A DNA stretch of 64,000 nt from Candidatus Poribacteria bacterium. GTDB lineage: Bacteria; Poribacteria; WGA-4E; PCPOR2b. Each line of letters opens with the position of its first letter. Within the stretch, counting starts at the first letter, position 1. The stretch lies in assembly GCA_965215015.1 (NCBI GenBank), contig OZ244042.1, positions 1-64,000 on the forward strand, read 5' to 3'. The notes beneath the pieces were generated by a model that saw nothing but the letters and a program-made list of their open reading frames with translations, made no database searches and was not told the origin of the DNA. Position numbers and translations under genes: made by a program. Of the stretch, positions 29,512 through 62,289 are shown piece after piece.

Positions 29512-29983
29512 ACTCACACATTTTGACGAAAAAGGACAAGTCCACATGGTTGATGTCACGCCGAAGGCAGAAACCCTACGCGTTGCGGTGGCACGGGGGC
29601 ATGTGTTCGCAAAACCGGAGACGCTCCGATTAATCGCTGAACGTGGTTTTGAAAAAGGGGATGTCCTCGAAGTAGCTCGCCTCGCCGGCATCATGGCAAC
29701 CAAGCACACTGGCAGTCTCATCCCCCTCTGTCATCCGATCGCGCTGACCTCCGTCAAAGTTGATCTGTCAATCAATGAAGCGGAACGCCGCGTCCAAATT
29801 GAGGCGGAGGTACAGACCGTCGGACGGACAGGTGTCGAGATGGAAGCCTTGACCGCTGTTTCTGTCGCCGGTTTGACGGTCTACGATATGTGCAAGTCGG
29901 TAGACAGGGGGATGGAGATTTCTGATATTCGATTGGTCAAAAAAACTGGTGGGAAAAGTGGAACATTTATCCGGGAGGAGTAA
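29501..29983 (+). CDS. moaC: Cyclic pyranopterin monophosphate synthase
   Basis: LTHFD..MVDV, KGDVL..ARLAGIMA, LIPLCHP, TGVEMEAL, YDMCK, KTGGKSG. Confidence 0.97.
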   Translation: MMNKLTHFDEKGQVHMVDVTPKAETLRVAVARGHVFAKPETLRLIAERGFEKGDVLEVARLAGIMATKHTGSLIPLCHPIALTSVKVDLSINEAERRVQIEAEVQTVGRTGVEMEALTAVSVAGLTVYDMCKSVDRGMEISDIRLVKKTGGKSGTFIREE

Positions 29984-29988
29984 TCATC

Positions 29989-30341
29989 GTCAACCACCCA
30001 ACCCTAAAGGGTAGGGCTTGTCAACCGTTCCCTTAACTGGTATCTTTAGGGGCTTATCGGTCTTGGCTCGTCGCTTTACACGCGTGCGACCGAAGGTCAA
30101 AAGTGTACCTTTAGAATGCAAGTCAAGCAGAATCGGCGATTCCACGAACTCAATTTCAACGCGAACCCTCGGACAACCTTCTCTCCTTTGGCTACTACGC
30201 CAAGAGGGAAGCGAAAAGCGAGCGTTTTTCTTAAGGCGTCGAGCTACGATAATACCCCAAGACGTTTTGGAAAACAAGGCTAAAGCAGATGTTACCTCCC
30301 ACCACAGAGGTGTGGGTTTCCACACCTAAAGGAGTTTTCTA
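29989..30341 (-). mobile_element. Non-autonomous IS200/IS605-family element (~353 bp), probably TnpB-derived
   Basis: End hairpins GTCAACCACCCAACCCTAAAGGGTAGGGCTTG and CCTCCCACCACAGAGGTGTGGGTTTCC; no TSD; abuts ATGA at 30342. Confidence 0.8.
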
Positions 30342-33300
30342 ATGAAAAAAGAGGAACACAAAGGCACAGAGAGGCGTAAAAATAAACACAAACGTGCAAC
30401 GGCGAGAAGTTGTAAAGAATCTTTATTATTTTTTATTTTTGCGTCCTTGCGCCCAAGCATCCTTGCGTTCTTTTCAAATGCGTCTTTGCGTCCAAGCAGT
30501 AAAATAAAAAGATCGATTCAAATCTCCAGCTTGAAATCGGGACTCACAGCAGTTTACGTTTGCCTGATTTTGAGCTGTATTCTACTCATCACACCGGACA
30601 CCTCTGCCGAAGATTACGCACTTATCATTGGCGGCGTTGGCGGTGAGAAATCCTTTTATGATGAGTTTTGGAACGCGACCACACGAATGCGTGAACTGCT
30701 GATAGAGGAATACAGCTACGCATCGGAGCATGTCACCTTTCTGTTTGAAGATGACGGAGAGGTGTCGAATCTGATCGACGGGAAATCAACGAAAGCAGGA
30801 GTTGAAGCCGCTTTCACTAATCTACAGGCCCGGGTACAGCCGAGAGATCGGTTCCTCCTTTTCATGGTGGGTCATGCAACCAAAACCACAGGTGGACTAA
30901 AATTCAACTCACCCGGACGGGATATCAGGGGCATAGAATGCGCTGCGCTCATTGAGAAGATTCCCGCTGAGCAGATGATCTTAATCTTCGGATTTCCTTA
31001 CAGCGAGCGCGTCGTCTCTCAAGTGAGCAAGGAGGGGCGAACAATTATAACCGCGTGCTCAGCGCGTGAAGGGTACATGCGTTCAGGATTTGGGAACATC
31101 TTCATTGACGCCTTTTCCGATGGTGCCGCTGATGCGGATGACAATGGAGCAATCTCACTGTTAGAGGCGTTTCTGTACACTCAAAAACGGGTGAAAACGT
31201 GGTACGAAAACGATGGTTCTATTCAATCGGAGCATCCCCATCTTGACGATAACGGGGATGGGAACGCTTCACGCAAAGAGTTACCAAACGCTTCAGATGG
31301 TGCCCTCGCTCAAAGCACCTACCTTGGAAAACGTCGTTCAGCACTCGTTGCCTCTGTGTCAGCCGAAGTGGACTTGAATCGTCCCAATGGTGAATTGACA
31401 GAAACGCTTAACGAGGCTGACTACCCACCATCCCAACGCACCTCAATTTCCTATAATTTCGTTTCAAAAACAGATGAAGCACAGATCGAAGGGTTGCTCG
31501 CTGATGCACCGAAGGCGGATGATCATCCCGATAGCGGCGCGGTTGTGCTTTGGGAAACAGAGGTGATGAACGTCAACGAAGACAGCAGCTACATCTATTC
31601 GACGCGGCGGATTGTAAAGATTTTCAATGATACGGGGCATAAATTTGGTAAGGTTAGCATCCCTTATACCCGCGGAAACGATGACATCACGATTCATCAC
31701 GCTCGAACACTCACCCCCGATGGGCGTGTAATCGATCTGGACCAGCGGAGAATCGTGAAAAATATCCCACCCCCGAGTGCGGTCGAAGCAGGGTTATTTG
31801 TAGACGCTCGCCTCATGCACTTTTCAATGCCAGAGATGTCCGATGATTGCATCATTGACTACGCCTACTCGTCCAACAATCGAGGACATTTGATGCAGGG
31901 CGAATTTTGGCATCAGGCCTACTTTCAAGCCTCGGTGCCTGTGCTGCACTACCGTTTCACGATTCATGCGCCGAAAAAGAAAACTGTCTATTACCAGATT
32001 AACAGTCCGCAAACCATCGGGAGTGAACCGACAATCACGGAGAATCGCTATACACGTACTTATACATTTGAGATACATGATGTTCCCCCGCTCCGTGAAG
32101 AGGCGTTTATGCCAGCCATCGCGGACCTCGCTTACAGCATCAACATCACATCGCTTGATTCGTGGAATAAACTTATGGAGTGGTACGGCACTCTTATTCG
32201 TGAGCAAGATTATGTGACACCAGAAATCGAGCAGAAGGCGAAGGCGTTGCTGAGAGGGGCATGGAGCCGAAAAGAGAAGATTAAACGGCTTTACGAATAC
32301 GTTGCGACGAACATTGATTATGTCGGCATCGAACTCGGAATATGGGCGATAAAACCGCACTCGGCGCCCGAAATCTTTAAGGAAGGATATGGAGACTGTA
32401 AGGATAAGACAACGCTGCTCAGTACGATGCTCTCCGCGGTGGGCATCCAGTCCTATCCGGTGCTGATTTCCGCGGGTGAATCCAGCAGGGTTGTCCGTGA
32501 AATCCCTTCACTCGCGTACTTTAATCACATGATTCTCGCTGTCGAGGAAAGTGACGAGGGGGGGCTCATCTGGCTAGATGCGACAGCGGAGACCTGCGCG
32601 TTTGGAGATCTCCCCGCCAGCGATCAGGATCGGTGGGCACTCATCGTCAACCCTGATTTTCTCATGAAGGAACGGGAAGGGATAGACCAAGGGTTTACTT
32701 CAAATTCCGAGAAAATTGGCGGAATGCGGGAGCAATTATATCGATTCGCAAAAAGTCCAACCATTGGAGCGGCAGCAAACCTCAAAAGTGTTGAGACGCG
32801 GATACAGGTGGAAGATGATCTATCAGTAGAGGTCACTCAAACACTCACCGTAACCGGGGCGTTCAACACGAAACTACGAAGCCAATTGAAATATATCAAT
32901 CCTAATGAGCAATCGAAGTTTCTGCATGAATACATGGAGCTGGACGATCGCGCAAAGTTGGAGAAGGTTTCGACCCCAAAACTTGATGCCATGGAGGACA
33001 AATTGAAGATTGTCCTCACATGGCGATGTGAGGATTACCTCTTTGCTATTGGACAGCAGTATGTTCTTGAGTTACCGCTTGTCAAGCATCCTTACGCTGC
33101 GCTGCTCAGTGAAGAGGATAGGACGCACCCGGTCATCCTCGGCAAAGCGATTACTTTTGTGGATGAGGTTATCGTCAATTTATCGTCTCTATTTTCGGTG
33201 GATTCTGTGCCTGAAGACCGTGAAATTCATAACCGAGTTGGGGCTATCCAACTCAAGTATACAAAATCGAAACGAAAAATGGTAATGAAGCAGACACTCC

Positions 33301-33407
33301 GTTTCCATCGTCCAACAGTCCATGTCAATGAGATTCTCGACCTAAAGGCACTTGTCCGACAAGCCTCAAACAAGGGGACAAAGCGGGTATTGTTAGTCCA
33401 CAGGTAA
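30342..33407 (+). CDS. Fusion of a caspase/legumain-fold domain with DUF3857, transglutaminase-like and DUF3858-like domains
   Basis: YALIIGG..FMVGHA..DADDNGAISLLEAF..SEHPHLDDNGDG; ARTLTPDG; YGDCKDK, FNHMIL, WLDAT. Confidence 0.8.
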   Translation: MKKEEHKGTERRKNKHKRATARSCKESLLFFIFASLRPSILAFFSNASLRPSSKIKRSIQISSLKSGLTAVYVCLILSCILLITPDTSAEDYALIIGGVGGEKSFYDEFWNATTRMRELLIEEYSYASEHVTFLFEDDGEVSNLIDGKSTKAGVEAAFTNLQARVQPRDRFLLFMVGHATKTTGGLKFNSPGRDIRGIECAALIEKIPAEQMILIFGFPYSERVVSQVSKEGRTIITACSAREGYMRSGFGNIFIDAFSDGAADADDNGAISLLEAFLYTQKRVKTWYENDGSIQSEHPHLDDNGDGNASRKELPNASDGALAQSTYLGKRRSALVASVSAEVDLNRPNGELTETLNEADYPPSQRTSISYNFVSKTDEAQIEGLLADAPKADDHPDSGAVVLWETEVMNVNEDSSYIYSTRRIVKIFNDTGHKFGKVSIPYTRGNDDITIHHARTLTPDGRVIDLDQRRIVKNIPPPSAVEAGLFVDARLMHFSMPEMSDDCIIDYAYSSNNRGHLMQGEFWHQAYFQASVPVLHYRFTIHAPKKKTVYYQINSPQTIGSEPTITENRYTRTYTFEIHDVPPLREEAFMPAIADLAYSINITSLDSWNKLMEWYGTLIREQDYVTPEIEQKAKALLRGAWSRKEKIKRLYEYVATNIDYVGIELGIWAIKPHSAPEIFKEGYGDCKDKTTLLSTMLSAVGIQSYPVLISAGESSRVVREIPSLAYFNHMILAVEESDEGGLIWLDATAETCAFGDLPASDQDRWALIVNPDFLMKEREGIDQGFTSNSEKIGGMREQLYRFAKSPTIGAAANLKSVETRIQVEDDLSVEVTQTLTVTGAFNTKLRSQLKYINPNEQSKFLHEYMELDDRAKLEKVSTPKLDAMEDKLKIVLTWRCEDYLFAIGQQYVLELPLVKHPYAALLSEEDRTHPVILGKAITFVDEVIVNLSSLFSVDSVPEDREIHNRVGAIQLKYTKSKRKMVMKQTLRFHRPTVHVNEILDLKALVRQASNKGTKRVLLVHR

Positions 33408-33480
33408 ACGTGAATTTGCAATCCAATCCTAGTTAAAAGGGATTTTGACCGTTTGAGTTTAGTGGATGTGAGGAGAGAAA

Positions 33481-34584
33481 TTGGTGAGGCAGAAAGACTA
33501 CTATCAAATCCTTGGTGTGGGTCGGGATGCAACCTTCGACCAAATAAAGAAGGCTTATCGAAAAATTGCGATGCGTTATCATCCCGATAAAAATCCGGGG
33601 GATAAGCGTGCAGAGGAAAGATTCAAGGAAGCATCGATGGCTTATCAGGCATTGACCGAACTCACTCCGCAGCACATCGGCAATCAACCGCCAGGGAGGG
33701 GTCCGGGTAGTCAAGGCGGTGGAGGTTTTGGACCTTCTGGTGATAGTGTCTCCAAAATTAATGACCTCTTTGATAACCTATTCCAGCCCGGGGCGCAAAC
33801 CAAACGGAAAACAAAAACGAAACGAACAGTTAAAGCGAAGGGAAGACGTGGTTCCAACATAAGAGCTAGTCTGACCCTCACGTTTACTGAAGCGATGCTG
33901 GGAACGGAGCGGCCTATCCGTGTACCCCGCCATGAGGAATGCGACAGTTGTAATGGCACAGGTGCACAAAAGGGCTCGCCTCAATCAACTTGTCCTAATT
34001 GTATGGGAAACGGCGCGATCTTCGACCAGTTGCTACGTGGTAATGCAGCGAACAATAAACCGTGCGAACGCTGCCGAGGAACGGGTGTCCTCATTCATCG
34101 ACCGTGTCAGACCTGCCGCGGGACAGGTGCTACCCGCAAGGAGCGTTCTTTACTAGTGAAAACGCCTCCGGGGATTGAGAGTGGTAAATCATTACGCTTA
34201 CCCGGTCAAGGAGAATGTGGTTTACGGGGGGGGGGTTACGGCGATCTGTTTGTGGATGTTGTTGTCAAACCGCATCCGGCTCTACAACGCGATGGATATG
34301 ATTTGCGCTATCAGGTTTCAGTTGGCTTTGCGATTGCGGCACTAGGTGGAGAAATCGATGTTCCGACACTTACTGACCCCATAGCATTGAACCTCCCCCG
34401 AGGTACACAACCCAATCAGACGTTCCGGCTAATCGATCAAGGGATTCAAAAATCTGAAAACGAGAGGGGAGATCTCCTTGTCACTGTAGTCATTGAAATT
34501 CCTACTACCCTAACGAGGAAACAGGAACAGCTCCTGAAGAAGTATATCGAGTTGGAGAAAAAAGCGTCCTCACAGGAACCTTGA
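33481..34584 (+). CDS. dnaJ: DnaJ-family chaperone
   Basis: KDYYQILGV, HPDKN, four CxxCxGxG motifs, GDLFV, ALGGEIDVPTL. Confidence 0.85.
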   Translation: MVRQKDYYQILGVGRDATFDQIKKAYRKIAMRYHPDKNPGDKRAEERFKEASMAYQALTELTPQHIGNQPPGRGPGSQGGGGFGPSGDSVSKINDLFDNLFQPGAQTKRKTKTKRTVKAKGRRGSNIRASLTLTFTEAMLGTERPIRVPRHEECDSCNGTGAQKGSPQSTCPNCMGNGAIFDQLLRGNAANNKPCERCRGTGVLIHRPCQTCRGTGATRKERSLLVKTPPGIESGKSLRLPGQGECGLRGGGYGDLFVDVVVKPHPALQRDGYDLRYQVSVGFAIAALGGEIDVPTLTDPIALNLPRGTQPNQTFRLIDQGIQKSENERGDLLVTVVIEIPTTLTRKQEQLLKKYIELEKKASSQEP

Positions 34585-34767
34585 CAAACAGCTCGATACT
34601 CCCCGATGCACAGACTCAGATAGGCAGATCGGTTCTGTTCCGAGAATCCCGATTTGTCGGGATATTCAAAACAACCCCGATAAGATTGGAATTCAAAGGA
34701 ACTTGATGCCTTGACTCGCTTTCTCGTTCACTGGTTCGTTAATGAACCCATGAACTGAAATCAGCAC

Positions 34768-35352
34768 ATGAACTCATGTACTAATGAACCTATCACGGTG
34801 GTGTCGGGGCTCCCCCGATCCGGCACCTCAATGCTGATGCAAATACTGGCTGCCACCGGCTACCCGTGCCTGACTGATGGAGTACGGAAGGCGGACGCCG
34901 ACAACCCGCGTGGCTATTTTGAATATGAAAAGGTAAAATGGATTCGGCGAGATTATTCGTGGCTGCCTAAAGCGAAAGGCAAAGCGGTGAAAATCATCGC
35001 CCAACTGATGCCGTTTTTGCCGCCCCAATTCAGCTATCGAGTTATCTTCATGAAGCGCAATATCAACGAAGTGCTTGCGTCTCAGGGGAAAATGCTTCAA
35101 CGTCAGGGGAAAGGCGGCGGTAGCTTGTCCGACGTGCAGCTGGGCAAAATCTTTGAACGTCAGATCTGTCAGGTGAAGCAGCTGCTGACTCAACGTAATA
35201 TTCCGACGCTTAATGTAGCGCATTCGGATGCCCTTCAACGCCCGATGGAAATCGCGAAGAAGATTGAAATGTTCTTCGGTGAGGATTTGGATGTGTATGC
35301 CATGGCTGCAGCGGTTGACCCTAACCTCTACCGTCAGCGATATAAACAATAG
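34768..35352 (+). CDS. Sulfotransferase family protein
   Basis: PAPS-binding loop VSGLPRSGTSMLMQ, DNPRGYFEYE, EVLASQ. Confidence 0.85.
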   Translation: MNSCTNEPITVVSGLPRSGTSMLMQILAATGYPCLTDGVRKADADNPRGYFEYEKVKWIRRDYSWLPKAKGKAVKIIAQLMPFLPPQFSYRVIFMKRNINEVLASQGKMLQRQGKGGGSLSDVQLGKIFERQICQVKQLLTQRNIPTLNVAHSDALQRPMEIAKKIEMFFGEDLDVYAMAAAVDPNLYRQRYKQ

Positions 35353-35495
35353 ACTCCAACATCATTTGTATCGCATCGGCAGCATAGATCCATCTTCTGT
35401 CACGGTTCCCCTCAATCTTGGGTTCTCGAAATTACGAGAAAAGGCCTGATCGGCTTGGATAGACATATCCAAGCCATAACCGTGTAAAAGAAAAA

Positions 35496-36674: not shown

Positions 36675-36766
36675 TAACCTTTAGTGCGGGAGGGTGAAGA
36701 TATTGAGTTCATCGGTTCATTAATGAACTAATACAACAATAAACCAAAAAGGATTGGAGGTATGAT

Positions 36767-38298: not shown

Positions 38299-38326
38299 TT
38301 GCAATCACATTATGATGTGATATACT
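38299..38326 (+). promoter_or_regulatory. Promoter with an ATCACA-N6-TGTGAT palindromic operator
   Basis: TTGCAA-N16-TATACT with ATCACATTATGATGTGAT in the spacer. Confidence 0.55.
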
Positions 38327-38357
38327 GTATCCTAACATTTGTATCCGAGGTGATTGA

Positions 38358-39669: not shown

Positions 39670-39763
39670 GACGTGAAACCTAAAAAAAATGGGGGCATAG
39701 GTTCATGAATGAGCGCATGAACTAATGAACCGATGCACTCTTGAATAAGGCTTGGAGCAAAAC

Positions 39764-41160: not shown

Positions 41161-41404
41161 TAGGAGTTACGCCCTTGAGTGTGTAGTAATGCCATTCAAC
41201 CCGCGTCAAGAGGATAAATTGATCGACAGTAGTCGGTATACGCCGTATGCCGTACCCCCCTTCCCCTGCAAGCAGGGGATGGGGCGTAAGTGAGGAGAAA
41301 TAGACTCAATGAGTCTGTCTCCCCCTGCTTGCGGGGGGACTAAGGGGGGTCTTAGGGGATAAATCGCTGAACTACAAGGCTTCGGGTCAACTGCGTAAGG
41401 CCTA
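41161..41404. mobile_element. 244-bp MITE with TIRs TAGGAGTTACGC / GCGTAAGGCCTA carrying REP palindromes
   Basis: TIR match 10/12; ACAAT direct repeat on both flanks (41156-41160, 41405-41409); internal CCCCTGCAAGCAGGGG and CCCCCTGCTTGCGGGGGG. Confidence 0.75.
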
Positions 41405-41426
41405 ACAATTTTGAATGAGGTTCAAC

Positions 41427-44519: not shown

Positions 44520-44765
44520 GAAATGAAACAGGAACCTTTCCTGGCGAATCGGAGAACGGGAAGCCGGTTCGATCGCTTTCTCGTTTTCTAACTCTCCCGT
44601 TTTCTTTTTTTTGCGTTCCCCTTCCCCCTGCTTGCGGGGGGATTGAGGGGGGTCCCTTCCCTCCCCCTGCTTGCGGGAGGACTGAGGGGGGTGCCTTCCC
44701 TCCCCCTGCTCGCGGGGGGACTGAGGGGGGTGTCCCCGCGTTTTATTAAAAGCCAGTAACTACTT
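44520..44765. repeat. Dispersed repeat with three tandem REP units (period ~36 bp)
   Basis: CCCCCTGCTTGCGGGGGGA(C/T)TGAGGGGGG three times at ~44623-44730; flanks match 1-105 and the 56.5-56.9 kb units. Confidence 0.88.
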
Positions 44766-50212: not shown

Positions 50213-50240
50213 GTTATATCACACCCATGTGTGATTGAAA
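50213..50240 (-). promoter_or_regulatory. Putative promoter with an ATCACA-N6-TGTGAT operator
   Basis: Minus strand reads TTTCAATCACACATGGGTGTGATATAAC, same layout as 38299-38326. Confidence 0.45.
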
Positions 50241-50250
50241 TGTCGAACTG

Positions 50251-51168: not shown

Positions 51169-51214
51169 GATTATCCCTCCATGACTAAGTTCCTAATCTC
51201 TCTGATAGTTCTAT

Positions 51215-51502
51215 AGAATCCTGATTCTGACAAGTTACACCTCAGCCTCCAAAATCATCGCCGCATTCTGTCTGAATCGGGATTTACTGGATTTTAGGAT
51301 TCACAGGATTGACTCTATCCATTGCCATTGGCTATCCTGAAAATCATTCCATCTTGAGAATCCTGATTCTGACAAGTTACACCTCAACCTCCAAAATCAT
51401 CGCGACATTTGTCTGAATCGGGATTTACTGGATTTTAGGATTCACAGGATTGACTCTATCCATTGCCATTGGCTATCCTGAAAATCCTTCCATCTTGAGA
51501 AT
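51215..51502. repeat. Tandem duplication of a ~142-bp unit built from inverted ATCCTGATTCTGACA / TGTCTGAATCGGGAT motifs
   Basis: Units start at 51215 and 51357 and are nearly identical. Confidence 0.92.
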
Positions 51503-52144: not shown

Positions 52145-55100
52145 ATGTTTAAGCATCATTTCATTTCCGATTCGATGGGAATTTGCAAACAACGGCAGCA
52201 CCTCATCACACTTATTAGTCTATTGATGTGCATCGTAGGTTATCAAAATGTATACCCCCAACAACAGATTGCCCAAGATGCCTACGCTATTTTTCAACAG
52301 AGCTGCCTCATCTGCCATGGACCCGACGGTGCCTATCGAGAGACACTCCTAATGGAACACAACTCACTCATCGAAAACGGGACAGTGGTCCCCGGAAACC
52401 CCAATGCCTCCGAACTGTATAACCGGCTCCTGACGACTGAGATAGCCAAACGGATGCCCCTTGGACAACCCCGGCTATCCACTCAAGCGATTGCCACCAT
52501 CCGAAACTGGATATTCGCTGGCGCACCCGATTGGGCGGCAACCCCCGCAGCCGATAGACGCTTTATCTCTCCCGGTGAAATACTCAATACCATCGAGACT
52601 CACGTCATGTCGCTGGCACCGTTTGACCGTGCCTTTGCCCGGTACTTCACAATGACACACCTCTATAACGCAGGTGAGACCACGCGAGCTCTTGACAGCT
52701 ATCGTAACGGCCTCTCGAAACTGGTCAATAGCCTCTCATGGGGGAGTACCGTCACCAACCCCCAACCCATTGACCGACAAGGCACCATCCTCTACATTGA
52801 CCTGCGACACTACGAGTGGGATCGCAATGATGGGTGGGGGCAGATAGAAGCGGCATATCCCTATCACATCGGGTTTGATGCACCGACACAGACCGCGCTA
52901 CGGGCCCAACTGACCCGGTTACAGACGGCGATGAAGTCTGATATACCATCGGTTCATGTCGACTGGTTTATAGCACAAGCCTCTTTACCTCCACTCTACC
53001 ATGATTTACTCTCTCTCCCCTTAACGGATAAAGAGTTAGAGACCCGATTAGAAGTCGATGTTGTCCGTAACCTGCAAAATGCACCGGGGGTGCGTGTCTG
53101 GCGGGCCGGCACCAACAATTCAGGTGTCTCCAATCACAACCGAGTGATAGAACGCCACACCTCTCGCTATGGTGCCTATTGGAAAAGTTACGACTTTGGG
53201 GGGAGTGTGGGTACACAGAACATCTTCACCCATCCCCTGTCATTCACCCATGATGGTGGTGAGGTTATCTTCAACCTACCCAACGGGTTACAGGGATACT
53301 ACCTTGCCAATGGGGCCGGTTTTCGCCTAAATGAGGCACCGATAAACATTGTTTCTAATCCCGCAGCGAGTGATCCGACGGTGCGGAATGGTTTATCCTG
53401 TTTCGGTTGCCACACAGAGGGTATGAAGCCATTTGAGGACCAAGTCCGTTCGGTGATAGCGAATAATACCGCTCCCACTTATGACAAAGCGCAGGCGTTG
53501 CGGCTCTACGTGGCAAAATCAGAGATGAACGCGCTTGTGGGTGAAGATATGAATAGGTACAGGGTTGCCCTTGAAGCGACGGGCGGGGCGTTTGATGACA
53601 TTGAACCCATCTCCCGTTTCCACGAGGCATTTCAGGAGGAGGTAGACACAGCACACGCCGCAGCCGCGGTTGGGTTAGAGCCGGAGGCGTTCTTGGAAAA
53701 GATACGTGAGAATATAGGGCTACAGGATATCGGCTTGCTGGTGTTAGACAGTGAGGCTGGAAGTATGAAACGGGACACCTGGACATCGAGTTTTCGGGAT
53801 ATAGTTTTTGCGTTGGATTTCCCGGAGCGTTTCACCCCTCCCACGGCGATAACCCCGCCGGTAGTGACACCGGGTACGGTTGTGTATATCCCGGACCCAA
53901 ACCTGCGTGCGGCAATAGCGGAGGCACTGGACAAGAGCCCCAATGCTCCGATTACTGCCGAGGAGATGGCAAAGTTGAGCAGGCTCGATGTGCCGCGCAG
54001 GGGCATCCGTGATTTGACAGGGCTGCAGTATGCAACCAATCTGACACGGTTAAATATTAACGACAATCAGGTCTCCGACATCTCACCGCTAGCGGGCTTG
54101 ATCGAACTGCGCGAGCTCCGGATTCACGACAACGACAACCTCTTGTCCGATATATCGCCTGTGAGAGGCTTAACCAATCTCACTTATCTTCAGTTTGACC
54201 GCTCTACAGTCTCTGATATATCTCCCGTGAGAGGCTTAACCAATCTTACTTACCTTGAGTTTGACAACACTTTGGTATCCGATATATCTCCCGTGAGAGG
54301 CTTAACAAATCTCATTACCCTTAAGTTTGGTCACACTTCGGTATCCGATATATCTCCGGTGAGGAACTTAACAAATCTCACTCGCCTTGAGTTTGAGCAC
54401 ACTTTGGTATCTAACCTATTGCCAATTGCGAGATTAATCAATCTGGAGCGGTTACATTTGGGAAGTGATAATATCTCCGACCTGTCGCCGGTTTCAGGAT
54501 TAATCAACCTCAAACACATTAGTGGTGGTTGGGGCAGCTCTATATCCGATTTATCGCCCTTGGCAGGCTTAACAAAACTGGAGCAGATACATATGCACGG
54601 CGGAAAGATATCAGATCTCACGCCTTTAGCAGGCCTAACCGGCTTGAAGGAACTGCATTTTCGGGACAACGACATATCGAATCTCGCCCCCCTCGCAGGG
54701 TTAACACAGCTAACTCGTCTGCAGCTCGCGAACAACAATATATCGGATCTCTCCCCCCTTGCAGGGTTAACCAACTTGAAATGGCTAGTGATCCATGACA
54801 ACGAGATTTCTGACATTTCTCCGCTGCAGGGACTCCGCGAGAATATAACGACGTTCGTTTGGCATGACAACCCGGGATTCCCAAAAGTGGGACCGTCAAT
54901 CGAGGGGCCGTGGTTATGGGTTGTATTACCGGAAACAAGACCGAGTAGCAGTAAGGATTTACTGTCAGAAGTGAGCGGGGGGGCGGTAACAGAGACGGAG
55001 ATTGCTACCCATGGGGCAACCGTGGGAAGTTCTGTAGGTGATGATGTATGGACCTACCGCACACTCCCGCCTACGGGCTGGGCTAATGTTCGCCAAATGC

Positions 55101-56416
55101 TTGACGGCCACATCGATGGTGCCAGCCTCTACGGCACGGTGTCCTTGCATTCACCACGACAACAGGACACAACACTATACGTTGGCAGTCATAACGATTT
55201 TAAGGTCTGGCTCAACGGGACTTTGATTTACGAGTCTCTCCGTTACCATGCGAGTTTCGGTTACACGGATTCTCTGCCGGTCACGCTGAAGCAGGGAAGA
55301 AATGTGCTATTGGTAGCCGTTAGAGCCCAGTATAATGCCTTTTTTGGGTTTGAACCCGGCACCGAATATACTGTGGCGAACCCCGGTGTCGGATACACTT
55401 TTTCCAAGACACCCATTCATATAGGCGATACCTTTACCCTTAATCTTCGCGCCGAAACGGTCTCCGACTTGGCAGGCTGGCAGTTCGATATTGCCTTTGA
55501 CCCGGCTGCCCTCGAAGCCATTGACGTCAGCGAAGGCAATTTCCTGAAGGCAGATGGGGGCTCCACCTTCTTTCAGGGTAGGAGCATCGATAACGCGACA
55601 GGTAAAATCTCAGGACTCAGTGCGGCGCGATTGGCTGCCCAAGGTGTAAATGGCACCGGCACCCTGCTGCAGGTCAGGTTCAGGGCGAAATCTGCCGGTG
55701 AAACAGAGTTGGTGCTGCAAAACTTTCAGTTTGGCTCCATCACCGGCGATACTATCCCTGCAGGACCGCGTCAAATTCGCATCGCTGTCGAGGGACGCCT
55801 GGCGACCGGGGACGTGAATCGAGATGGTGTGGTCAGCATTTTGGATCTCATTCTCGTCGCACAGCAGTTGGGGAAAAAGGTGGCCCCCAACTCACCGGTA
55901 GATGTCAACCGAGATGGTGTTGTCAGCATCCTTGACCTTATCGGCATCGCGCAGGGGATCGGGAACACCACAGCACCTGCCGCCCCGGCACCCTCCTCAC
56001 TGGAGGTAAATCCTGAGACCATAGCGGCATGGATTGCACAGGCACAGGTGGCAGATGACGGTTCCCTTGCCTTCAAACAGGGTATCGCAAATCTCCAAAA
56101 CCTGTTAGCCGCGTTGATTCCTGAAGAGACTGCGTTGTTGGCAAACTATCCGAATCCGTTTAACCCGGAGACGTGGATACCGTATCAGTTGGCAACCCCT
56201 GCGGAAGTTACATTGACCATCTATGATAGGAACGGGGAGGTCGTTCGCCGGTTAGCCGTGGGACATCGAGGCGCGGGTATGTATCAGAGTCAAAACCGTG
56301 CGCTATATTGGGACGGACGGAATCAGCTGGGTGAACCTGTCGCCAGTGGCCTCTATTTTTACACACTGACAGCAGGCACATTCACGGGGACGCGGCGGAT
56401 GTTGATACTCAAATAA
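52145..56416 (+). CDS. Secreted multidomain protein: two CxxCH haem motifs, internalin-like LRRs, beta-sandwich, cohesin-like, dockerin-like and T9SS-type C-terminal domain
   Basis: CLICH, CFGCH, IPDPNLRAAI cap, ~13 22-aa LRRs, DLAGWQFDIAFDP, DVNRDGVVSILDL twice, ANYPNPFNPETWIPYQL..TRRMLILK. Confidence 0.88.
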   Translation: MFKHHFISDSMGICKQRQHLITLISLLMCIVGYQNVYPQQQIAQDAYAIFQQSCLICHGPDGAYRETLLMEHNSLIENGTVVPGNPNASELYNRLLTTEIAKRMPLGQPRLSTQAIATIRNWIFAGAPDWAATPAADRRFISPGEILNTIETHVMSLAPFDRAFARYFTMTHLYNAGETTRALDSYRNGLSKLVNSLSWGSTVTNPQPIDRQGTILYIDLRHYEWDRNDGWGQIEAAYPYHIGFDAPTQTALRAQLTRLQTAMKSDIPSVHVDWFIAQASLPPLYHDLLSLPLTDKELETRLEVDVVRNLQNAPGVRVWRAGTNNSGVSNHNRVIERHTSRYGAYWKSYDFGGSVGTQNIFTHPLSFTHDGGEVIFNLPNGLQGYYLANGAGFRLNEAPINIVSNPAASDPTVRNGLSCFGCHTEGMKPFEDQVRSVIANNTAPTYDKAQALRLYVAKSEMNALVGEDMNRYRVALEATGGAFDDIEPISRFHEAFQEEVDTAHAAAAVGLEPEAFLEKIRENIGLQDIGLLVLDSEAGSMKRDTWTSSFRDIVFALDFPERFTPPTAITPPVVTPGTVVYIPDPNLRAAIAEALDKSPNAPITAEEMAKLSRLDVPRRGIRDLTGLQYATNLTRLNINDNQVSDISPLAGLIELRELRIHDNDNLLSDISPVRGLTNLTYLQFDRSTVSDISPVRGLTNLTYLEFDNTLVSDISPVRGLTNLITLKFGHTSVSDISPVRNLTNLTRLEFEHTLVSNLLPIARLINLERLHLGSDNISDLSPVSGLINLKHISGGWGSSISDLSPLAGLTKLEQIHMHGGKISDLTPLAGLTGLKELHFRDNDISNLAPLAGLTQLTRLQLANNNISDLSPLAGLTNLKWLVIHDNEISDISPLQGLRENITTFVWHDNPGFPKVGPSIEGPWLWVVLPETRPSSSKDLLSEVSGGAVTETEIATHGATVGSSVGDDVWTYRTLPPTGWANVRQMLDGHIDGASLYGTVSLHSPRQQDTTLYVGSHNDFKVWLNGTLIYESLRYHASFGYTDSLPVTLKQGRNVLLVAVRAQYNAFFGFEPGTEYTVANPGVGYTFSKTPIHIGDTFTLNLRAETVSDLAGWQFDIAFDPAALEAIDVSEGNFLKADGGSTFFQGRSIDNATGKISGLSAARLAAQGVNGTGTLLQVRFRAKSAGETELVLQNFQFGSITGDTIPAGPRQIRIAVEGRLATGDVNRDGVVSILDLILVAQQLGKKVAPNSPVDVNRDGVVSILDLIGIAQGIGNTTAPAAPAPSSLEVNPETIAAWIAQAQVADDGSLAFKQGIANLQNLLAALIPEETALLANYPNPFNPETWIPYQLATPAEVTLTIYDRNGEVVRRLAVGHRGAGMYQSQNRALYWDGRNQLGEPVASGLYFYTLTAGTFTGTRRMLILK
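54146..54410 (+). repeat. Four near-identical 66-bp LRR-coding units
   Basis: TC(C/T)GATATATC.CC.GTGAG..CTTAAC.AATCT at 54146, 54212, 54278 and 54344. Confidence 0.85.
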
Positions 56417-56502
56417 ACCAGATGGGCTTGTTTCACTTTAGCCATACGGAAATTGCTGTGGAACTATTGTATGTAGGTCGATTTGCCAAAATCGACAATC
56501 CC

Positions 56503-56935
56503 TATCGGGGATTCACGGTTTCATCGGAAGAAGAACCAAGAAACGAAACAGCAACCTTCCCTGACGAAAGGAAAGACGGGAAGCCAGTTCTCTCGCTTTC
56601 TTTTTTTCCGCTCCCCTTCCCCCTGCTTGCGGGGGGACTGAGGGGGGTCCGTCTTATAGAATACCAGAACCCAATGAGTGGATAGGAGCTTTTCTCTGAA
56701 TTTAACGCAAAATCGCCCCCCCGCAAGGAGGAGGGGGCACCAGTCCCGATGCTGTTGCCCTCTAAAGGGAATGCTTACCGCATCGGGGATTCACGGTTTC
56801 ATCGGGAGAAGACCCAAGAAACGAAACCGGAACCTGCCCTGACGAAAGGAAAGACGGGAAGCCGGTTCCCTCGTTTTCTTTTTTTTCGTTCCCCTTCCCC
56901 CTGCTTGCGGGGGGACTGAGGGGGGTCCGTCTTTA
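56503..56935. repeat. Two copies of a ~155-bp REP-containing dispersed repeat
   Basis: ATCGGGGATTCACGGTTTCATCGG..CCCCTGCTTGCGGGGGGACTGAGGGGGGTCCGTCTT at ~56503 and ~56781. Confidence 0.9.
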
Positions 56936-57022
56936 TTTCTGTTGGTCGTCGTGCTATAATGAAAGTATTGAAATTTGGTTTCTAAACCGATTTGATGCCC
57001 CAAACGCAGAAAGGGAATTAGA

Positions 57023-57430
57023 ATGGCTATCTTTTTACACACGCGCGTTAGAGTGAGCAATCTCGATCAATCAATCAAATGGTATTGCGACCACTTAGGT
57101 TTTGTTGTAAAAAGTCGAAGCGATAAATCTCCAGCAGGCAACCAGATCGTCCATCTGGAACTTCCGGGTAACGTACCGACGCTGGAGTTGACCTATTCGC
57201 CCGACTATAAACTAAATGTTCCAGAAGATCTGATGCACTTTGCTATCAGTGTGCCGAATCTCGTTGACTGTTGTGACACATTGGAGAAGGCGGGACTTGA
57301 AATTTGGCCCGATGGCTGGCGAGAACAGTTCACATCGGGAGGCATGAAGATGGCATTCATCACCGATCCAGACGGTTACGAAGTTGAACTGCTGGAAGAT
57401 ATCGATGAGATTCTGGCAGAGTTGGAATAG
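57023..57430 (+). CDS. VOC/glyoxalase family protein (lactoylglutathione lyase-like)
   Basis: FLHTRVRVSNLDQSI, LELTY, HFAI, AFITDPDGYEVEL. Confidence 0.9.
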   Translation: MAIFLHTRVRVSNLDQSIKWYCDHLGFVVKSRSDKSPAGNQIVHLELPGNVPTLELTYSPDYKLNVPEDLMHFAISVPNLVDCCDTLEKAGLEIWPDGWREQFTSGGMKMAFITDPDGYEVELLEDIDEILAELE

Positions 57431-57535
57431 CTAAACGCACCCAAAAAGCTGGAATCTGTCCGCCCGACCATTCCTATTGAACCTTTGGTGATAGTTGGTG
57501 AGGGTGTCGTTATCGTTCAAGAGTTCATTAGTACA

Positions 57536-57675
57536 TAGGAGTTACGCACCTGAGTTTGTGGTAACGCCATTCAACCCACGTCTTTAAGGGTTACGGTATA
57601 CAGAGTATACCGTAACCCTCCTGCCCCCGCTGAGCCCCCTAACCCCCAACCCCCCGCAAGCGGGGGAAGGGGGGA
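57536..57675. repeat. TAGGAGTTACGC-family MITE fragment with REP hairpins
   Basis: Homologous to 41161 and 59192; hairpin GGGTTACGGTATAC-AGA-GTATACCGTAACCC. Confidence 0.75.
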
Positions 57676-57727
57676 TAATGAACCAATGAGCAAATGGTTT
57701 TCCCGTTTCACCTGGTTATTGAGGCCT

Positions 57728-59035
57728 CTACTCCTCCTGATAGACCTCCTTGAGTTGTGTGGTGGTGATAAACCCCAGCAATCCCATCCCGATGGCAACG
57801 GCGAACATTCCTGCATAGTTTACAAGTCCGATGAGTTGCCCCGCGAGCATTGGCATAAAGCTGAACGGAAAGAGGATTGTGTTTATAAAACCGACATAGC
57901 TTGGACGATTCAAGCTTGGTGCAATATTTAGCAGATACGCCATGAACCCTATCGACGAACCGCTCATTGATGCGCCGTTGAAGACAAACGTCAGAAAATA
58001 GCACGGCACCTGCCACGCCGTCGGCAAGTATTTCACCAAAATCGCAACCAACGGTGATGCACATCCCAATGCCGAGGTGCAACTGAGGATGTATCGCACA
58101 CCATATCTCTCCCCTAGGTAACCCCACAGTGCATTTGACATGACACCGCTGATGGAGACAACGGCGAGAAACGTTCCAATCGTTGCGTCCGGCACTTCCA
58201 ATTTGAGCAAGGCGTAAGGGACATAAAAAGGGGTGCACATCCCGGCGACGGTGGTACACATTCGATAGTAAAAGAACCAGCGATAATTCCGATCTGTCTG
58301 AAAGAAGTGTGGTCCCTGCTTCAGGTGCTGTCCAAGCGGTTGACGCGCACTTTGGACGGGACGGATGGGCTCGCGGAGCTGCAGAAAAGTCGTAAGCGAC
58401 AACGCAATAGCTACCCCCGCGCACCCGAAAAGGAGCGCATAATTCGTTGGGAATACCAATCCGGATTCAGGGTTTAAGATATATCGGATAAAGAAAAAAC
58501 CGATGAACACACCGAAGAACCCACCCATCAACTGGCGCAAACTGAAATATCGGGATCGCCGCTGCGGTTCAATGGATTTGGAAATAATATCCATATACGG
58601 AAGCGTGGAAACCCCCATCGCCGAAGATCTGATGAAATAACAGCAGAGAAAGCACGCGGCAAGTAACCCGTTGTTTCCAGAACCGACCAAAAGGGTGCAG
58701 ACGACCATTGTGATCCATGCGAGCAGTCGAAAGCTCATACCGAGGACATAGAAGGGCATCTTGCGTGGACGGTGTTCTAGCAGATTCGAGATCAGGAGTT
58801 GGGGCCACATCCAACCGGCTCGCGTCATCGAACCGGTCAAACCGACAAGCGTGTTTGAGGAAGTGAGTTTTAAAATAAAGGCAGGGAGAACCGTTGTTGA
58901 GTCTGCAAACGCAAAAGAAATTCGTATGAATGTGCCTTGAAGCACAGCAATCCAAAAATTACGGTTCTGTTCCCGTTCCCTGTCTGTTTCCTGTTGATGC
59001 TCGGACTCCGATGTGTTCGTCAGGGCAGCTTTCAT
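57728..59035 (-). CDS. MFS transporter
   Basis: ~12 hydrophobic segments, WGYLGERYGVR loop motif. Confidence 0.9.
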   Translation of the reverse strand: MKAALTNTSESEHQQETDREREQNRNFWIAVLQGTFIRISFAFADSTTVLPAFILKLTSSNTLVGLTGSMTRAGWMWPQLLISNLLEHRPRKMPFYVLGMSFRLLAWITMVVCTLLVGSGNNGLLAACFLCCYFIRSSAMGVSTLPYMDIISKSIEPQRRSRYFSLRQLMGGFFGVFIGFFFIRYILNPESGLVFPTNYALLFGCAGVAIALSLTTFLQLREPIRPVQSARQPLGQHLKQGPHFFQTDRNYRWFFYYRMCTTVAGMCTPFYVPYALLKLEVPDATIGTFLAVVSISGVMSNALWGYLGERYGVRYILSCTSALGCASPLVAILVKYLPTAWQVPCYFLTFVFNGASMSGSSIGFMAYLLNIAPSLNRPSYVGFINTILFPFSFMPMLAGQLIGLVNYAGMFAVAIGMGLLGFITTTQLKEVYQEE

Positions 59036-59074
59036 AGTCAGTTTCGTTTTCCCTCTACACCTCTATCGAACCTT

Positions 59075-59114
59075 GCTGACAAGACTCCATGCCTTTAGGC
59101 TAGGGACAGCTGGT
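59075..59114 (-). mobile_element. Degenerate IS200/IS605 end in the 5' UTR of the MFS gene
   Basis: Minus strand CCAGCTGTCCCTAGCCTAAAGGCATGGAGTCTTGTCAGC resembles GTCAACCACCCAACCCTAAAGGGTAGGGCTTGTCAAC at 29989. Confidence 0.5.
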
Positions 59115-59191
59115 TAGGTATCACCTAACATTATAGTCAGTCGAAGTGCGTTGATATATAAAAACTGGTGAATTTATAAGTAAAATAGAGT

Positions 59192-59745
59192 TAGGAGCTC
59201 CACACTTGAGTTTGTAGTAACGCCATTCGACCCACGTCTTTAAGGGAGTCAGCATACAGAGTATGCCATCCCCCCCTTCCCCCGCTAAATACCCTGTGGG
59301 TTGTCCGTCAGTTCCTGGCTCATTGAGTCTACCCCCCTCAATCCCCCCGAAAGCAGGGGGAGACAGAACCACCCCCCTCAATCCCCCCGCAAGCAGGGGG
59401 AACGTATCGGTAGTTGGCACCTCTTTGCCCCTCCCCGCTTGCGGGGAGCTCTGTTCCGCCACGCTTACGGCCTCTTCCCCTCCCTGCTTGCGGGGAGGGG
59501 CTAGGGGTGGGGTTCTTAGGGGGACACCCCACCGGGTTGCGGCCCCGCTTGCGCCCTTCCCCCTGCTAAACACCCTGTAGGTTGTCCGTCAGTTCCTGGC
59601 TCATTGAGTCTACCCCCCTCAATCCCCCCGAAAGCAGGGCGAAGAGATACCGTATCGGTATTTGGCACTTCTTTTCCCATCACCCCTTGCAGCCTCTTCC
59701 CCTCCCTGCTCGCGGGGAGGGGCTAGGGGTGGGGTTCTTGCGGTT
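59192..59745. repeat. Composite MITE/REP cluster with a ~280-bp internal duplication
   Basis: ACCCTGT.GGTTGTCCGTCAGTTCCTGGCTCATTGAGTCTACCCCCCTCAATCCCCCCGAAAGCAGGG at ~59290 and ~59572; GGGGCTAGGGGTGGGGTTCTT twice. Confidence 0.85.
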
Positions 59746-59805
59746 TATGAATCTCGACTTACAGCGTTTGCAGAATCGGCGACAGTAAAATGCCAACACG
59801 GCATA

Positions 59806-60894
59806 TCAAGTCCGGGGGCTATACCTAGGTTGTCGAGGGGCACGGTCTCGCAGGAGCCGAATCGGACGCCCCTGCAGCGGCAATTCGACCCGTGCCCCAC
59901 CACAAAGATGTGATTCGATGGTTGCAAAGATTAGCTCTGTGCCAGCGTGTGCAACCCGCACCCCGCCGCGTGGTGGCTCGCCGGTGTCAAGTGAATGGAC
60001 GAGATCTTCCACGAGTCGTAGGTTGGGACTGGCTGGTTCGTAGTCGGGAAACGCTGCGTCCACAACCGTCGGCTGCCCCCGGTAACCCGGTGGCCCCTCT
60101 GCTCGCATTCGATACACGCTGTTGGGCAAGGCGGTCAAACTCCCTTTTTCACAGTTGACTTCCCACTCAATTTCACGGCTAGGGGTTACAGCATACGCTG
60201 TCATGTTGTTCTCAAAATGAATAACCCCGTGCCCAACCGGGTCCTCGGTCAATCGGTCCCCGTCAACCTGCCAATTGCCCTCCCTCAGATGCGCTTGCAC
60301 CCAAACTGCACGGCGGTCACTATTTAGGAACAACAGGTTATCATAGTAATGACTGGCTCCATTAAACAGCGTGCTACCGTTGAAGATAATCGTCTTTGGG
60401 GCACCAAGTTTGCCGCTGTCGATGATTTCCTTCATTTTAGTGAAGCCGGGATGCCACCGCCGTTGGGTGCCGAGGTTAAAGAAGACACCGTTCCGCTCGC
60501 AGGTTTCAACCATTGCATCAGCTTCTGCCATTGACGCTGCCATCGCCTTCTCAGCATAGATTGCTTTGGCACTGTGCTCGGCGGCATAGATGACGATTTC
60601 AGCACGATGCTCCGGCTGTGTAGCGACACTGACAATGTCGGGCCGCTCTTTGTCAATCAATTCTTTGTAGTTGGTGTACTGTTTTTCTTTTGGGATATTA
60701 TACTGCACTCCAACTTCAGCCATGACCTCTGGACGGAGGTCTGAGCACGCAATCAGGTCTGTTCTATCGCAGGCGGTAAATACTGCCGTGTGCGAATAGG
60801 GAGGCACATGCCCTGGTGCCCCAACAACCTCATTGTCGATGAACGCTCCCATGCGGCTGCATCCGATAACCGCTGCTCGATATGTCTTCAACAT
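59806..60894 (-). CDS. Gfo/Idh/MocA family oxidoreductase
   Basis: AAVIGCSRMG, DIVSVAT, IYAEKAMA; likely start MLKTY within ORF 59806..60912. Confidence 0.88.
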   Translation of the reverse strand: MLKTYRAAVIGCSRMGAFIDNEVVGAPGHVPPYSHTAVFTACDRTDLIACSDLRPEVMAEVGVQYNIPKEKQYTNYKELIDKERPDIVSVATQPEHRAEIVIYAAEHSAKAIYAEKAMAASMAEADAMVETCERNGVFFNLGTQRRWHPGFTKMKEIIDSGKLGAPKTIIFNGSTLFNGASHYYDNLLFLNSDRRAVWVQAHLREGNWQVDGDRLTEDPVGHGVIHFENNMTAYAVTPSREIEWEVNCEKGSLTALPNSVYRMRAEGPPGYRGQPTVVDAAFPDYEPASPNLRLVEDLVHSLDTGEPPRGGVRVAHAGTELIFATIESHLCGGARVELPLQGRPIRLLRDRAPRQPRYSPRT

Positions 60895-61166
60895 CAATTC
60901 CTCCCGATACACGAAACATATAACAACTCAAGTTGCCCCCTAAAGCCCCAGCAGAGCGACAGGTGTCAACTTGCCTACCCTTCTGAAGTTCCCACGTACG
61001 ATCTATTTTTACCTTAGCATAAAATGACTAATCTGTCCAAATATTTATGTATAAGTCTTGGTTGCGGAAAGATCAATTTAGTAAAATATTAGATATCGCC
61101 CCTGTGCAACCTGTGATTCTCTTCGTGCTTGCCTTCCTGATGTTCCGACACTCCCGTAAAAAAAAG

Positions 61167-61195
61167 TTGACAACTCCTAAAATATGGGTTATCAT
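61167..61195 (+). promoter_or_regulatory. Sigma70 promoter of the mntR-troAB operon
   Basis: TTGACA-N17-TATCAT. Confidence 0.8.
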
Positions 61196-61208
61196 GTACT
61201 GATTAAGA

Positions 61209-61226
61209 ATTTAGGAGTGCCTAAAT
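61209..61226. promoter_or_regulatory. DtxR/MntR-type operator
   Basis: Palindrome ATTTAGG-AGTG-CCTAAAT just downstream of the -10, resembling SirR/MntR boxes (TTAGG-N4-CCTAA). Confidence 0.8.
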
Positions 61227-61247
61227 CTAATTTTTGGATGGTCAAGA

Positions 61248-61620
61248 ATCAATAACCCCGTCCTAAAGGTCAGAGCTTGTACGAAGCGAATGCCACCCGC
61301 CGCTCCACAAGCTAAACCGTTGACTACACAGATGGTAACTTAGCTGTCTCTGCGTGGTAGCAGTCACCAGATGATACGGATGCCTCCTTATGGAGAATTA
61401 CTGATGTTCGTCCCAGTTGTAAACAAAAAATCAAAAACTGTTGATGCCTACCAAGCCCGCCCGTGCCCGGCGGTGGATTAAACAGGGCACAGTCAATCCC
61501 TTCTTTAACAAAGGTGTGTTCTGTGTTCTATTAAATATTGAGCCATCTGATAGCCAACTTGACGATAAGGAGCGCAGTTGCCTCCACACCATAGAAAGAT
61601 GGGGAACTGCGAAGATCTTG
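61248..61620 (+). mobile_element. Internally deleted IscB/IsrB-type IS200/IS605 element: partial omegaRNA plus PLMP/RRXRR N-terminal coding fragment
   Basis: ATCAATAACCCCGTCCTAAAGGTCAGAGCTTGT..ACAAGCT..GTTGAC; MFVPVVNK|LMPTKPARARRWIKQG..FFNKGVFCVLLNIEPS; far-end hairpin ~61578-61611; abuts ATGA at 61621. Confidence 0.85.
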
Positions 61621-62289
61621 ATGATAACCCATGCGATGGAAGATTATCTGAAGACAGTCTACTTGCTGCAAGAAGGTCGGGAGAAAGTCTCTACCTCTGC
61701 TATAGCCCAGCAAATGGATGTTTCTGCCGCATCTGTCACCGGTATGATCCGAAAGTTGGCAGCGATGGGATTCTTGAATTACGCCTCCTATCACGGCGTT
61801 GAATTGACAGAAGGTGGAAAAAAAATCGCTCAAGAAATTATTCGTCATCATCGGTTACTGGAACTTTATCTCGTGGAAATCATGGGATTTACTTGGGACA
61901 AAGTGCACGATGAGGCGGATAAACTGGAACATGTTATCTCCGAGGAGTTTGAGGAAAGGATGAGCGAGGCGTTGGGACATCCGACAACCGACCCGCACGG
62001 ACACGCTATCCCAGCCAAGGATGGTGCACTCCAAGAAGTTACTTATGAAACGCTGACAGAGGTGAATGTGGGCAGTTCTGCTACCGTTCAGCATGTCAAT
62101 GATAATAATCCCGAAATGCTGCGTTACCTCGATCAGCTGGGTTTGCTGCCGGGCACCGTTGTCCAAGTTATGGCGAAAGAACCATTTAATGGACCATTGC
62201 GTTTGAGGATTGACCAGACCGAACACTTTGTTGGTCTCGAAGTCGCAGGAAATGTGTTTGTAAGTCCTCAGACCACCTTATCTGCATGA
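61621..62289 (+). CDS. mntR: DtxR/MntR-family metal-dependent repressor with C-terminal FeoA-like domain
   Basis: MEDYLKTVY, ASVTGMIRKL, RHHRLLELYL, EADKLEH, DPHGHAIP. Confidence 0.93.
   Translation: MITHAMEDYLKTVYLLQEGREKVSTSAIAQQMDVSAASVTGMIRKLAAMGFLNYASYHGVELTEGGKKIAQEIIRHHRLLELYLVEIMGFTWDKVHDEADKLEHVISEEFEERMSEALGHPTTDPHGHAIPAKDGALQEVTYETLTEVNVGSSATVQHVNDNNPEMLRYLDQLGLLPGTVVQVMAKEPFNGPLRLRIDQTEHFVGLEVAGNVFVSPQTTLSA

Follow-up and report, generated by a model that had tools for sequence, protein, structure and literature searches.

Start codons as resting places of ISC1/IsrB-type IS200/IS605 elements and their fossils in a Candidatus Poribacteria genome and its genus

Two short elements in the genome of a Candidatus Poribacteria bacterium (GTDB lineage Bacteria; Poribacteria; WGA-4E; PCPOR2b) raise the question of why mobile DNA should come to lie exactly between the leader of a gene and its start codon. 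Both are found in the stretch analyzed here, i.e., positions 1 to 64,000 of the forward strand of contig OZ244042.1 (GenBank assembly GCA_965215015.1; 64,000 nt, hereafter the window): el1, a 353-bp mini-element lacking a coding open reading frame (ORF), occupies 29989-30341 (+) between moaC and a DUF3857/transglutaminase-like gene, and el2, a 373-bp internally deleted IsrB element, occupies 61248-61620 (+) immediately in front of mntR. We consider it likely that both are fossils of non-autonomous ISC1/IsrB-type IS200/IS605 elements that were retained at start sites and have lost their enzymes, with the AAGGAG of one end type serving as a replacement ribosome-binding site (RBS). The copies sit exactly before start codons because their target, ATGA, itself contains the start codon.

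el1 starts with GTCAAC and, as a preliminary description of the window had it, finishes with AAGGAG (30329-30334) and a 7-nt spacer, its terminus at 30341 being followed directly by the ATG at 30342. Upstream lies moaC (29501-29983, +; Pfam MoaC, E 1.8e-58), with its stop at 29983 and a native GGAGG RBS region for the next gene in its last codons; downstream, the DUF3857/transglutaminase-like gene (30342-33407, +; Pfam DUF3857, E 7.4e-30) begins at a conserved start, ATG 30342. Both loci were searched in 40 relatives and the same-genus loci were then read (11 for el1). Ten of these 11 sites are empty, and the eleventh (G003) carries an internally deleted el1 at the same position, retaining its initial 21 nt and terminal ~85 nt. 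In nine of the ten empty sites the 3' end of moaC directly abuts ATGA or ATGG and the frame is open into the conserved protein; the empty site of G015 has ATA at the junction and the next in-frame ATG is used, and in G014, read by eye, the TGA stop of moaC overlaps the downstream ATG as ATGA. The empty relatives thus display the very junction of RBS and ATG that had been proposed to result from cutting out 29989-30341, and the proposed boundary is exact to the base. That ATG 30342 might not be the true start was considered and rejected, as the frame of the junction ATG is open in the relatives despite a hypervariable N-terminal stretch of 70 codons. This stretch (30342-30552, the first ~70 codons) is rich in Lys, Arg and Glu, of low complexity and different in almost every relative; three relatives have an extra insert of ~140 nt in it, with the junction-ATG frame still open.

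At the mntR locus ten relatives are readable, an eleventh being cut by a contig end, and all ten lack el2: their empty site reads GGATGGTCAAG(A/T) joined to ATGATAAC, as expected from removal of 61248-61620, and their identity with the window resumes exactly at 61621. The ATG at this position belongs to the target ATGA and is the start of mntR, encoding a DtxR-family metal repressor (61621-62289, +; Pfam Fe_dep_repress, Fe_dep_repr_C and FeoA). At both loci, then, the empty sites join an RBS region to an ATG, and judged from them both boundaries are right to the base and the ATGs at 30342 and 61621 are real start codons. Upstream of el2, a region noted by eye (61167-61225, +) holds two promoter-like hexamers 17 nt apart (61167-61172 and 61190-61195), followed by a palindrome (61210-61225); it is conserved in 10/10 relatives read and is pushed 373 bp further from mntR by the element. 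el2 contains a frameshifted remnant of an IsrB N-terminus (61404-61563, +; PLMP/RRXRR, PF14239, E 7.2e-5 over profile positions 6-50 of 174, and also E 0.0013) that opens with MFVPVV, as intact proteins do. The in-frame reading from the element into mntR that had been described is borne out by an ORF at 61441-62289, which starts inside el2. A second remnant, at 3936560-3936685 of the genome, shares 89% identity with the first 130 nt of el2, and positions 61249-61565 (~317 nt) align with the 5' part of an intact element of G005 at 74% identity, a homology that takes in the ~200-nt region upstream of intact isrB genes. Given this alignment with the 5' part of an intact IsrB element, we read el2 as an internal-deletion derivative.

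The family to which both belong can be defined from the intact relatives. el1 and el2 have only ~45 nt in common; these lie at the 5' end and contain a hairpin with the loop CTAAAG. Intact genes of the family represented by the el2 remnant occur in 9 of 19 sister genomes; the main intact protein has 335 amino acids (aa), matches RRXRR only in Pfam and aligns with DtIsrB (PDB 8DMB, E 2e-40, residues 3-281), which identifies it, by homology, as an IsrB. The intact elements measure 1.25-1.29 kb, begin with GTCAATAACC as el2 does, have ~200 nt before the ORF and end in a hairpin followed by ...GAAGATTTCG, like the end of el2. ATGA stands directly after each of the 22 delimited IsrB elements of the relatives (18 + 4). 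Insertion 5' of ATGA without target-site duplication, together with a 5' GTCA end, places both el1 and el2 with ISC1/IsrB; as to coding capacity, neither internal ORF of el1 has any Pfam match and el2 keeps only the frameshifted remnant. Since neither contains an intact IsrB gene, the two are derivatives, not full members, of ISC1/IsrB-type IS200/IS605. The preliminary description had taken them for non-autonomous IS200/IS605 derivatives with a fixed ATGA and no target duplication, which the empty sites support, and had pointed to a branch with an ATGA/NTGA target-adjacent motif (TAM), which is indeed IsrB/ISC1 (published TAM NTGA, published target N|ATGA). Judging from sequence and pairing, the ends carry subterminal hairpins resembling those that Y1 TnpA binds: the 5' hairpin with the CTAAAG loop shows changes on both sides, and 3' hairpins occur in both end types. 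The geometry of the empty sites, a 5' flank and then ATGA, would fit RNA-guided nicking. Rfam searches of the window gave no family at gathering score, and relaxing the cut-off to E 10 around el1 and el2 yielded matches at chance level; no covariance-model match to HEARO RNA (RF02033) was found at gathering score in the window or at E up to 10 around the elements. Weinberg and colleagues are said to have remarked in 2009, with respect to HEARO, on insertion next to ATGA/GTGA.

el1 represents a second, ORF-less kind of element, related copies of which lie elsewhere in the genome. Elements of this type are 340-416 bp long, possess both ends, occur in several copies per genome and contain a scaffold of ~250 nt with strongly conserved blocks and compensatory pairs (8 copies aligned, from 4 genomes). 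In el1 the candidate omegaRNA-like scaffold spans 29989-30247 (+), with its terminal hairpin at ~29997-30016, and the 3' end (30288-30341, +) carries subterminal hairpins; most copies have the 3' end of IsrB elements, and el1 itself has the AAGGAG-bearing one. For the terminal hairpin, minus-strand pairing is the better of the two (54/56 cells vs 46/56), in agreement with TnpA reading a DNA hairpin from the minus strand; for three internal helices it is the plus-strand pairing that is better. As the structures of the two strands were each predicted separately, the test is biased, and its meaning is confined to differences at the level of helices. Together with the shared ends, these strand differences suggest that the scaffold may be an omegaRNA running in the same sense as the host gene.

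The enzymes that could mobilize such elements are broken or absent in this genome. A search for RRXRR returned nothing beyond the el2 remnant, none of the 19 TnpB zinc-ribbon matches is in a frame longer than 109 aa, and of four TnpA matches the two strongest carry a stop or a frameshift, i.e., no intact Y1 transposase that could act in trans was found here; full-length TnpA matches are present in 17/19 sister genomes. Thus, with no intact IsrB, TnpA or TnpB in the genome, el1 and el2 are immobile fossils. The copies have a mean identity of 93.8% among 17 elements, vs 82-89% for the flanking host DNA, and the youngest pair is 99.4% identical. If the elements are younger than their hosts, as these values indicate, an excess at starts among intact copies is no effect of fossilization.

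Such an excess was seen in a census of de-duplicated insertion sites covering this genome and its genus, where 38 of 45 unique sites abut the start of a long ORF, in line with the start-codon enrichment that had been claimed. In this genome, six el2-type ends, six AAGGAG-type ends and one further copy make up 13 unique sites, 11 of them at a long-ORF start; these 11 ORFs have at least 188 aa, and the two exceptions have 15 and 18 codons. Intact IsrB elements of the relatives, found via the protein (24 loci, 22 with both ends, two of which are the same site), contributed 21 unique sites, 17 of which are at long-ORF starts, the four exceptions having 2-18 codons; two HNH-bearing or longer RRXRR proteins (L039, L040) with other ends or family were excluded. 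The third set comprises ORF-less el1-type copies in relatives: 20 regions were fetched, 13 had a recognizable 3' end, and, after removal of one member of an orthologous pair and one site shared with this genome, 10 of 11 unique sites fall on long-ORF starts, two of these being GTG with a GTGA target (L070 and L080; G004 and G015). Upstream of the 5' junctions, at a distance of 5-12 nt, the host DNA has Shine-Dalgarno-like motifs of its own. Of the seven exceptions overall, two lie in sense 45 and ~70 nt upstream of a start and one follows closely after a stop codon. No other kind of site holds nearly as many copies as start codons do, which amounts to a strong rule. As a separate observation, the intact IsrB element at L053 (G014) sits on an ATGA stop/start overlap, where the upstream ORF gains a few codons from the element.

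How surprising this is depends on the sites taken as available, which we estimated from 4767 genes predicted in this genome with a home-made gene caller (longest-ORF starts, 84% coding). The genome has 52,037 ATGA sites, with 1,995 of them providing a gene's first ATG and 8,591 falling between genes. If intragenic insertions are purged, the expected share at starts is 0.19 (P 3e-21 for 38/45 and 1e-9 for the intact IsrB elements alone); for sense sites up to 150 nt upstream or up to 100 nt downstream of a gene it is 0.40-0.47 (P 9e-10 to 3e-7), and for sites up to 60 nt upstream of a gene it is 0.66 (P 0.004 for 38/45). The excess over any tolerated ATGA is very large; a position in sense and shortly upstream of a gene explains most of it.

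Several points count against giving start codons, or the RNA-guided reading built on them, more weight than this. Under the tightest expectation (0.66) the intact IsrB elements alone are not significant (17/21, P 0.10), and it is thus not established that the start codon itself is preferred over any other sense position shortly upstream of a gene. The expectation was derived from one genome and applied to the sites of many, an ORF start was called from a length of at least 68 aa (or an ORF running off the locus) plus a look at the N-terminus rather than from annotation, and seven of the 20 el1-type loci were dropped as they had no recognizable 3' end. The omegaRNA reading of el1 draws on shared ends and a suggestive strand test, and its scaffold had neither an intact protein partner in any genome searched nor an Rfam match. 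The el2-type end is without a Shine-Dalgarno-like motif.

We infer that the excess arises from transcription reading into the elements from host promoters, and envisage the following course. An intact member in a sister species, ~1.27 kb long, consists of a 5' GTCA end, a putative omegaRNA scaffold of ~200 nt, a gene for a 335-aa IsrB nickase and a 3' hairpin end, and Y1 TnpA provided in trans would insert it directly 5' of NTGA without target duplication. Starts of the form ATG+A and GTG+A are NTGA sites that are transcribed, in sense and just outside the coding sequence, and copies would accumulate there through successive filters: insertions within genes would be purged, only copies read into from a host promoter would make a guide (the guide being the host sequence just upstream), and only guide-making copies would be reinstated by IsrB after excision by TnpA. 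Of all NTGA sites, the start codon alone would then invariably be part of a host transcript, in sense and outside the coding sequence. IsrB could restore a copy because the excised site, flank plus ATGA, equals guide match plus TAM. By analogy with IsrB/IscB omegaRNAs, whose guide, in published accounts, corresponds to the 5' flank and requires read-in host transcription, the guide would come from the native RBS region, as the preliminary description had proposed. In the present genome, the immobile copies are decaying by internal deletion and the host genes would now be expressed through them, the AAGGAG of the el1-type end, 7-8 nt from the terminus, taking over as RBS.

The last of these steps leaves traces that can be followed in the genomes. 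Six ATGs in this genome are preceded by the AAGGAG-type end, with AAGGAG 7-8 nt before the ATG; five of them open long ORFs, and four of the six ends are stubs of ~25-100 nt in front of long ORFs. For the gene at 4784272, ten genomes were read: five have a native AAAGGAA site and five have the stub, and in the latter the upstream gene or other sequence abuts the stub, whose last ~25 nt are nearly invariant. The AAGGAG end with its 7-nt spacer, already remarked upon, is thus conserved and is kept where the native Shine-Dalgarno is gone (5/10 genomes). G003, too, kept the AAGGAG end of el1 after losing most of the element. It is most likely, from these comparisons, that the AAGGAG of the el1-type end took over as the RBS of the gene, and retention of the stubs would fit a dependence of host genes on the motif. 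Its resemblance to a Shine-Dalgarno sequence may be incidental, as a motif in a subterminal region needed for transposition. Around the 4784272 locus (G000:C1:4784170-4784272, L086-L094) the upstream neighbor differs between stub and native-site genomes, which suggests a deletion or rearrangement with a breakpoint inside the element. Another stub, of 48 nt (G000:C1:2490146-2490196), joins a degenerate 5' end to the AAGGAG end and lies between a stop codon and an ATG that is followed by C, not A, the fourth base of the target having changed or never having been A.

Retention through read-in transcription has to be weighed against the possibility that insertion itself prefers start codons, i.e., that the transposase or a single-stranded state of the DNA favors ATGA at translation starts before any selection acts. 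The roughly four- to five-fold excess over all tolerated ATGA sites (38/45 vs 0.19) would follow directly from such a bias, and both members of the youngest pair of copies are at starts. However, only 4 nt are recognized, with flank positions 5-6 varying (ATGAAA, ATGATA, ATGACT, ATGAGA and others), the excess nearly vanishes when only sites up to 60 nt upstream of genes are compared, and three of the exceptions, upstream in sense or behind a stop codon, lie where retention by read-in predicts; we regard a bias of insertion as unlikely. A different account would see survivorship only, copies being recognizable mainly where the host needs their end as an RBS while others have decayed away. The four AAGGAG stubs in this genome and the conservation of the 4784272 stub in five genomes while the sequence upstream diverges speak for it. 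Yet it fails for the intact elements of the relatives, which were found via their protein and not their flanks and still lie at starts in 17 of 21 cases, it is inapplicable to the el2-type end, where no RBS-like motif exists, and the excess is already seen among intact, near-identical copies. As a general explanation survivorship is therefore possible, though doubtful, and it may be a contributing factor for the stubs only.

It had also been suggested that the elements might constitute a domesticated regulatory layer, in which inserted RNA structures control mntR, the DUF3857 gene and others. Their position in the 5' leader, in sense and with hairpins next to the start codon, speaks for this, and one end type does supply a Shine-Dalgarno-like motif, but el2 is present only in this genome of 11 read and el1 in two of 12, the target genes are functionally unrelated, and the copies show frameshifts and internal deletions with no conservation beyond the last ~25 nt. 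A conserved cis-regulatory leader is not what the loci display, el2 being absent from 10/10 relatives and el1 from 10/11. With copies polymorphic between species, placed at unrelated genes and decaying, and with nuclease and transposase lost, regulation of this kind is highly improbable, and fossils of non-autonomous ISC1/IsrB-type elements retained at start sites remain our favored explanation. One could go further and see in the NTGA target an adaptation that secures a host promoter for the guide without damage to coding sequence, one end type bringing a Shine-Dalgarno motif and host dependence leaving 25-nt stubs; we offer this tentatively and do not expect that it will prove right.

A third, degenerate end had been noted upstream of the gene for a major facilitator superfamily (MFS) transporter (57728-59035, -; Pfam MFS_1, E 1.7e-13). 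The end does exist, on the minus strand at ~59060-59175 (weak nhmmer match, E 92), with its hairpin 44-70 nt upstream of ATG 59035, the MFS start; it belongs, however, to a TnpB-type family and stops 28 nt before this ATG, with no ATGA there. Dozens of ends in the genome that begin with TTGAC carry the same hairpin, and remnants of a TnpB zinc ribbon are found 100-400 nt further in, on the other strand, from which we regard these ends as right ends of TnpB-type elements. The far ends of this type, which the third end resembles, read ...TTTTTG|ATAA, i.e., their target contains no start codon and they are not located on start codons. A boundary after TA was rejected for these far ends, as comparison with the ATGA-type ends favors ...TTTTTG|ATAA. 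Two sites (4607500 and 5808096) were assigned to the ATAA-target class and left out of the census.

The window contains further repeats. Short palindromic families with C-runs and G-runs, often nested, lie at 8-69, 41313-41351, 44593-44732, 56588-56927 and 59273-59720, and are also found inside some mini-elements elsewhere in the genome. The ORF at 52145-56416 (1423 aa) contains about ten tandem 66-nt units (54144-54777) and a 65-nt repeat pair (55811-55965), and an intergenic tandem duplication of 141-142 bp (91-99% identical) occupies 51210-51502.

The kind of element, its target, its TAM and the logic of read-in transcription have all been published, and what we describe is selfish DNA of a known kind with a modest extra twist. 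According to the main text of Kapitonov, Makarova and Koonin (2016, PMC4810608), ISC1-1_MA of Microcystis has a 5'-GTCA end and an N|ATGA target without duplication, and ISC elements share ends and target with TnpB-type IS605B elements whose gene is on the other strand. The window copies resemble this Microcystis aeruginosa element, as portrayed there, in the GTCA terminus, the position 5' of ATGA, the subterminal hairpins and the non-autonomous state with Y1 in trans, and differ in having lost the IsrB gene (el1 wholly, el2 all but ~50 frameshifted codons); start codons are mentioned nowhere in that main text (PMC4810608). From the same text, the el1-type elements (ORF-less, 340-416 bp, both ends, multicopy) are like PATE/MITE-like derivatives of IS200/IS605, unlike which they keep ~250 nt of conserved structured scaffold and not just the ends (PMC4810608). 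IsrB is described in the open text of Hirano et al. (2022, PMC9581776) with an omegaRNA of ~300 nt and an NTGA TAM. The 335-aa sister proteins match DtIsrB at the E-value given above, the NTGA TAM equals the flank here, and the omegaRNA is likewise encoded upstream of the gene, whereas only ~200 nt separate element end and ORF here, this genome has no protein, and the clade is known from sequence (compare PMC9581776, same text). As the text of the preprint by Meers et al. (10.1101/2023.03.14.532601) has it, the IscB scaffold is the transposon's right end, the guide is located outside the element and needs outside transcription, and there is a bias toward the orientation of the upstream gene. 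The situation proposed here would share with that Geobacillus IscB the external guide at the right end, the read-in promoter, the orientation and the restoration of the excised donor site by the nuclease, and would differ in that the TAM there is AT-rich, with no occurrence of "ATGA" and no start-codon rule in the preprint text, while here the target contains the start codon (10.1101/2023.03.14.532601). No statement of a start-codon rule was found in the main texts of the open literature.

Taken together, an N|ATGA target, an NTGA TAM and an externally transcribed guide combine into one picture, in which RNA-guided transposons live on start codons, in sense, and the census quantifies this residence for one genus (referred to as cyanobacterial in our analysis) at 38 of 45 unique sites. 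For annotation, it follows that what looks like a regulator in front of a gene, be it a structured leader of 350 bp or an AAGGAG stub of 25 nt, may instead be the fossil of a transposon, and that ORFs such as 61441-62289, which run from a fossil into a host gene, are artefacts. The stubs provide a case, small but testable, in which host genes would be translated from an RBS of transposon origin and, should the NTGA target indeed be an adaptation, many seemingly "native" RBSs in cyanobacteria would be transposon ends.

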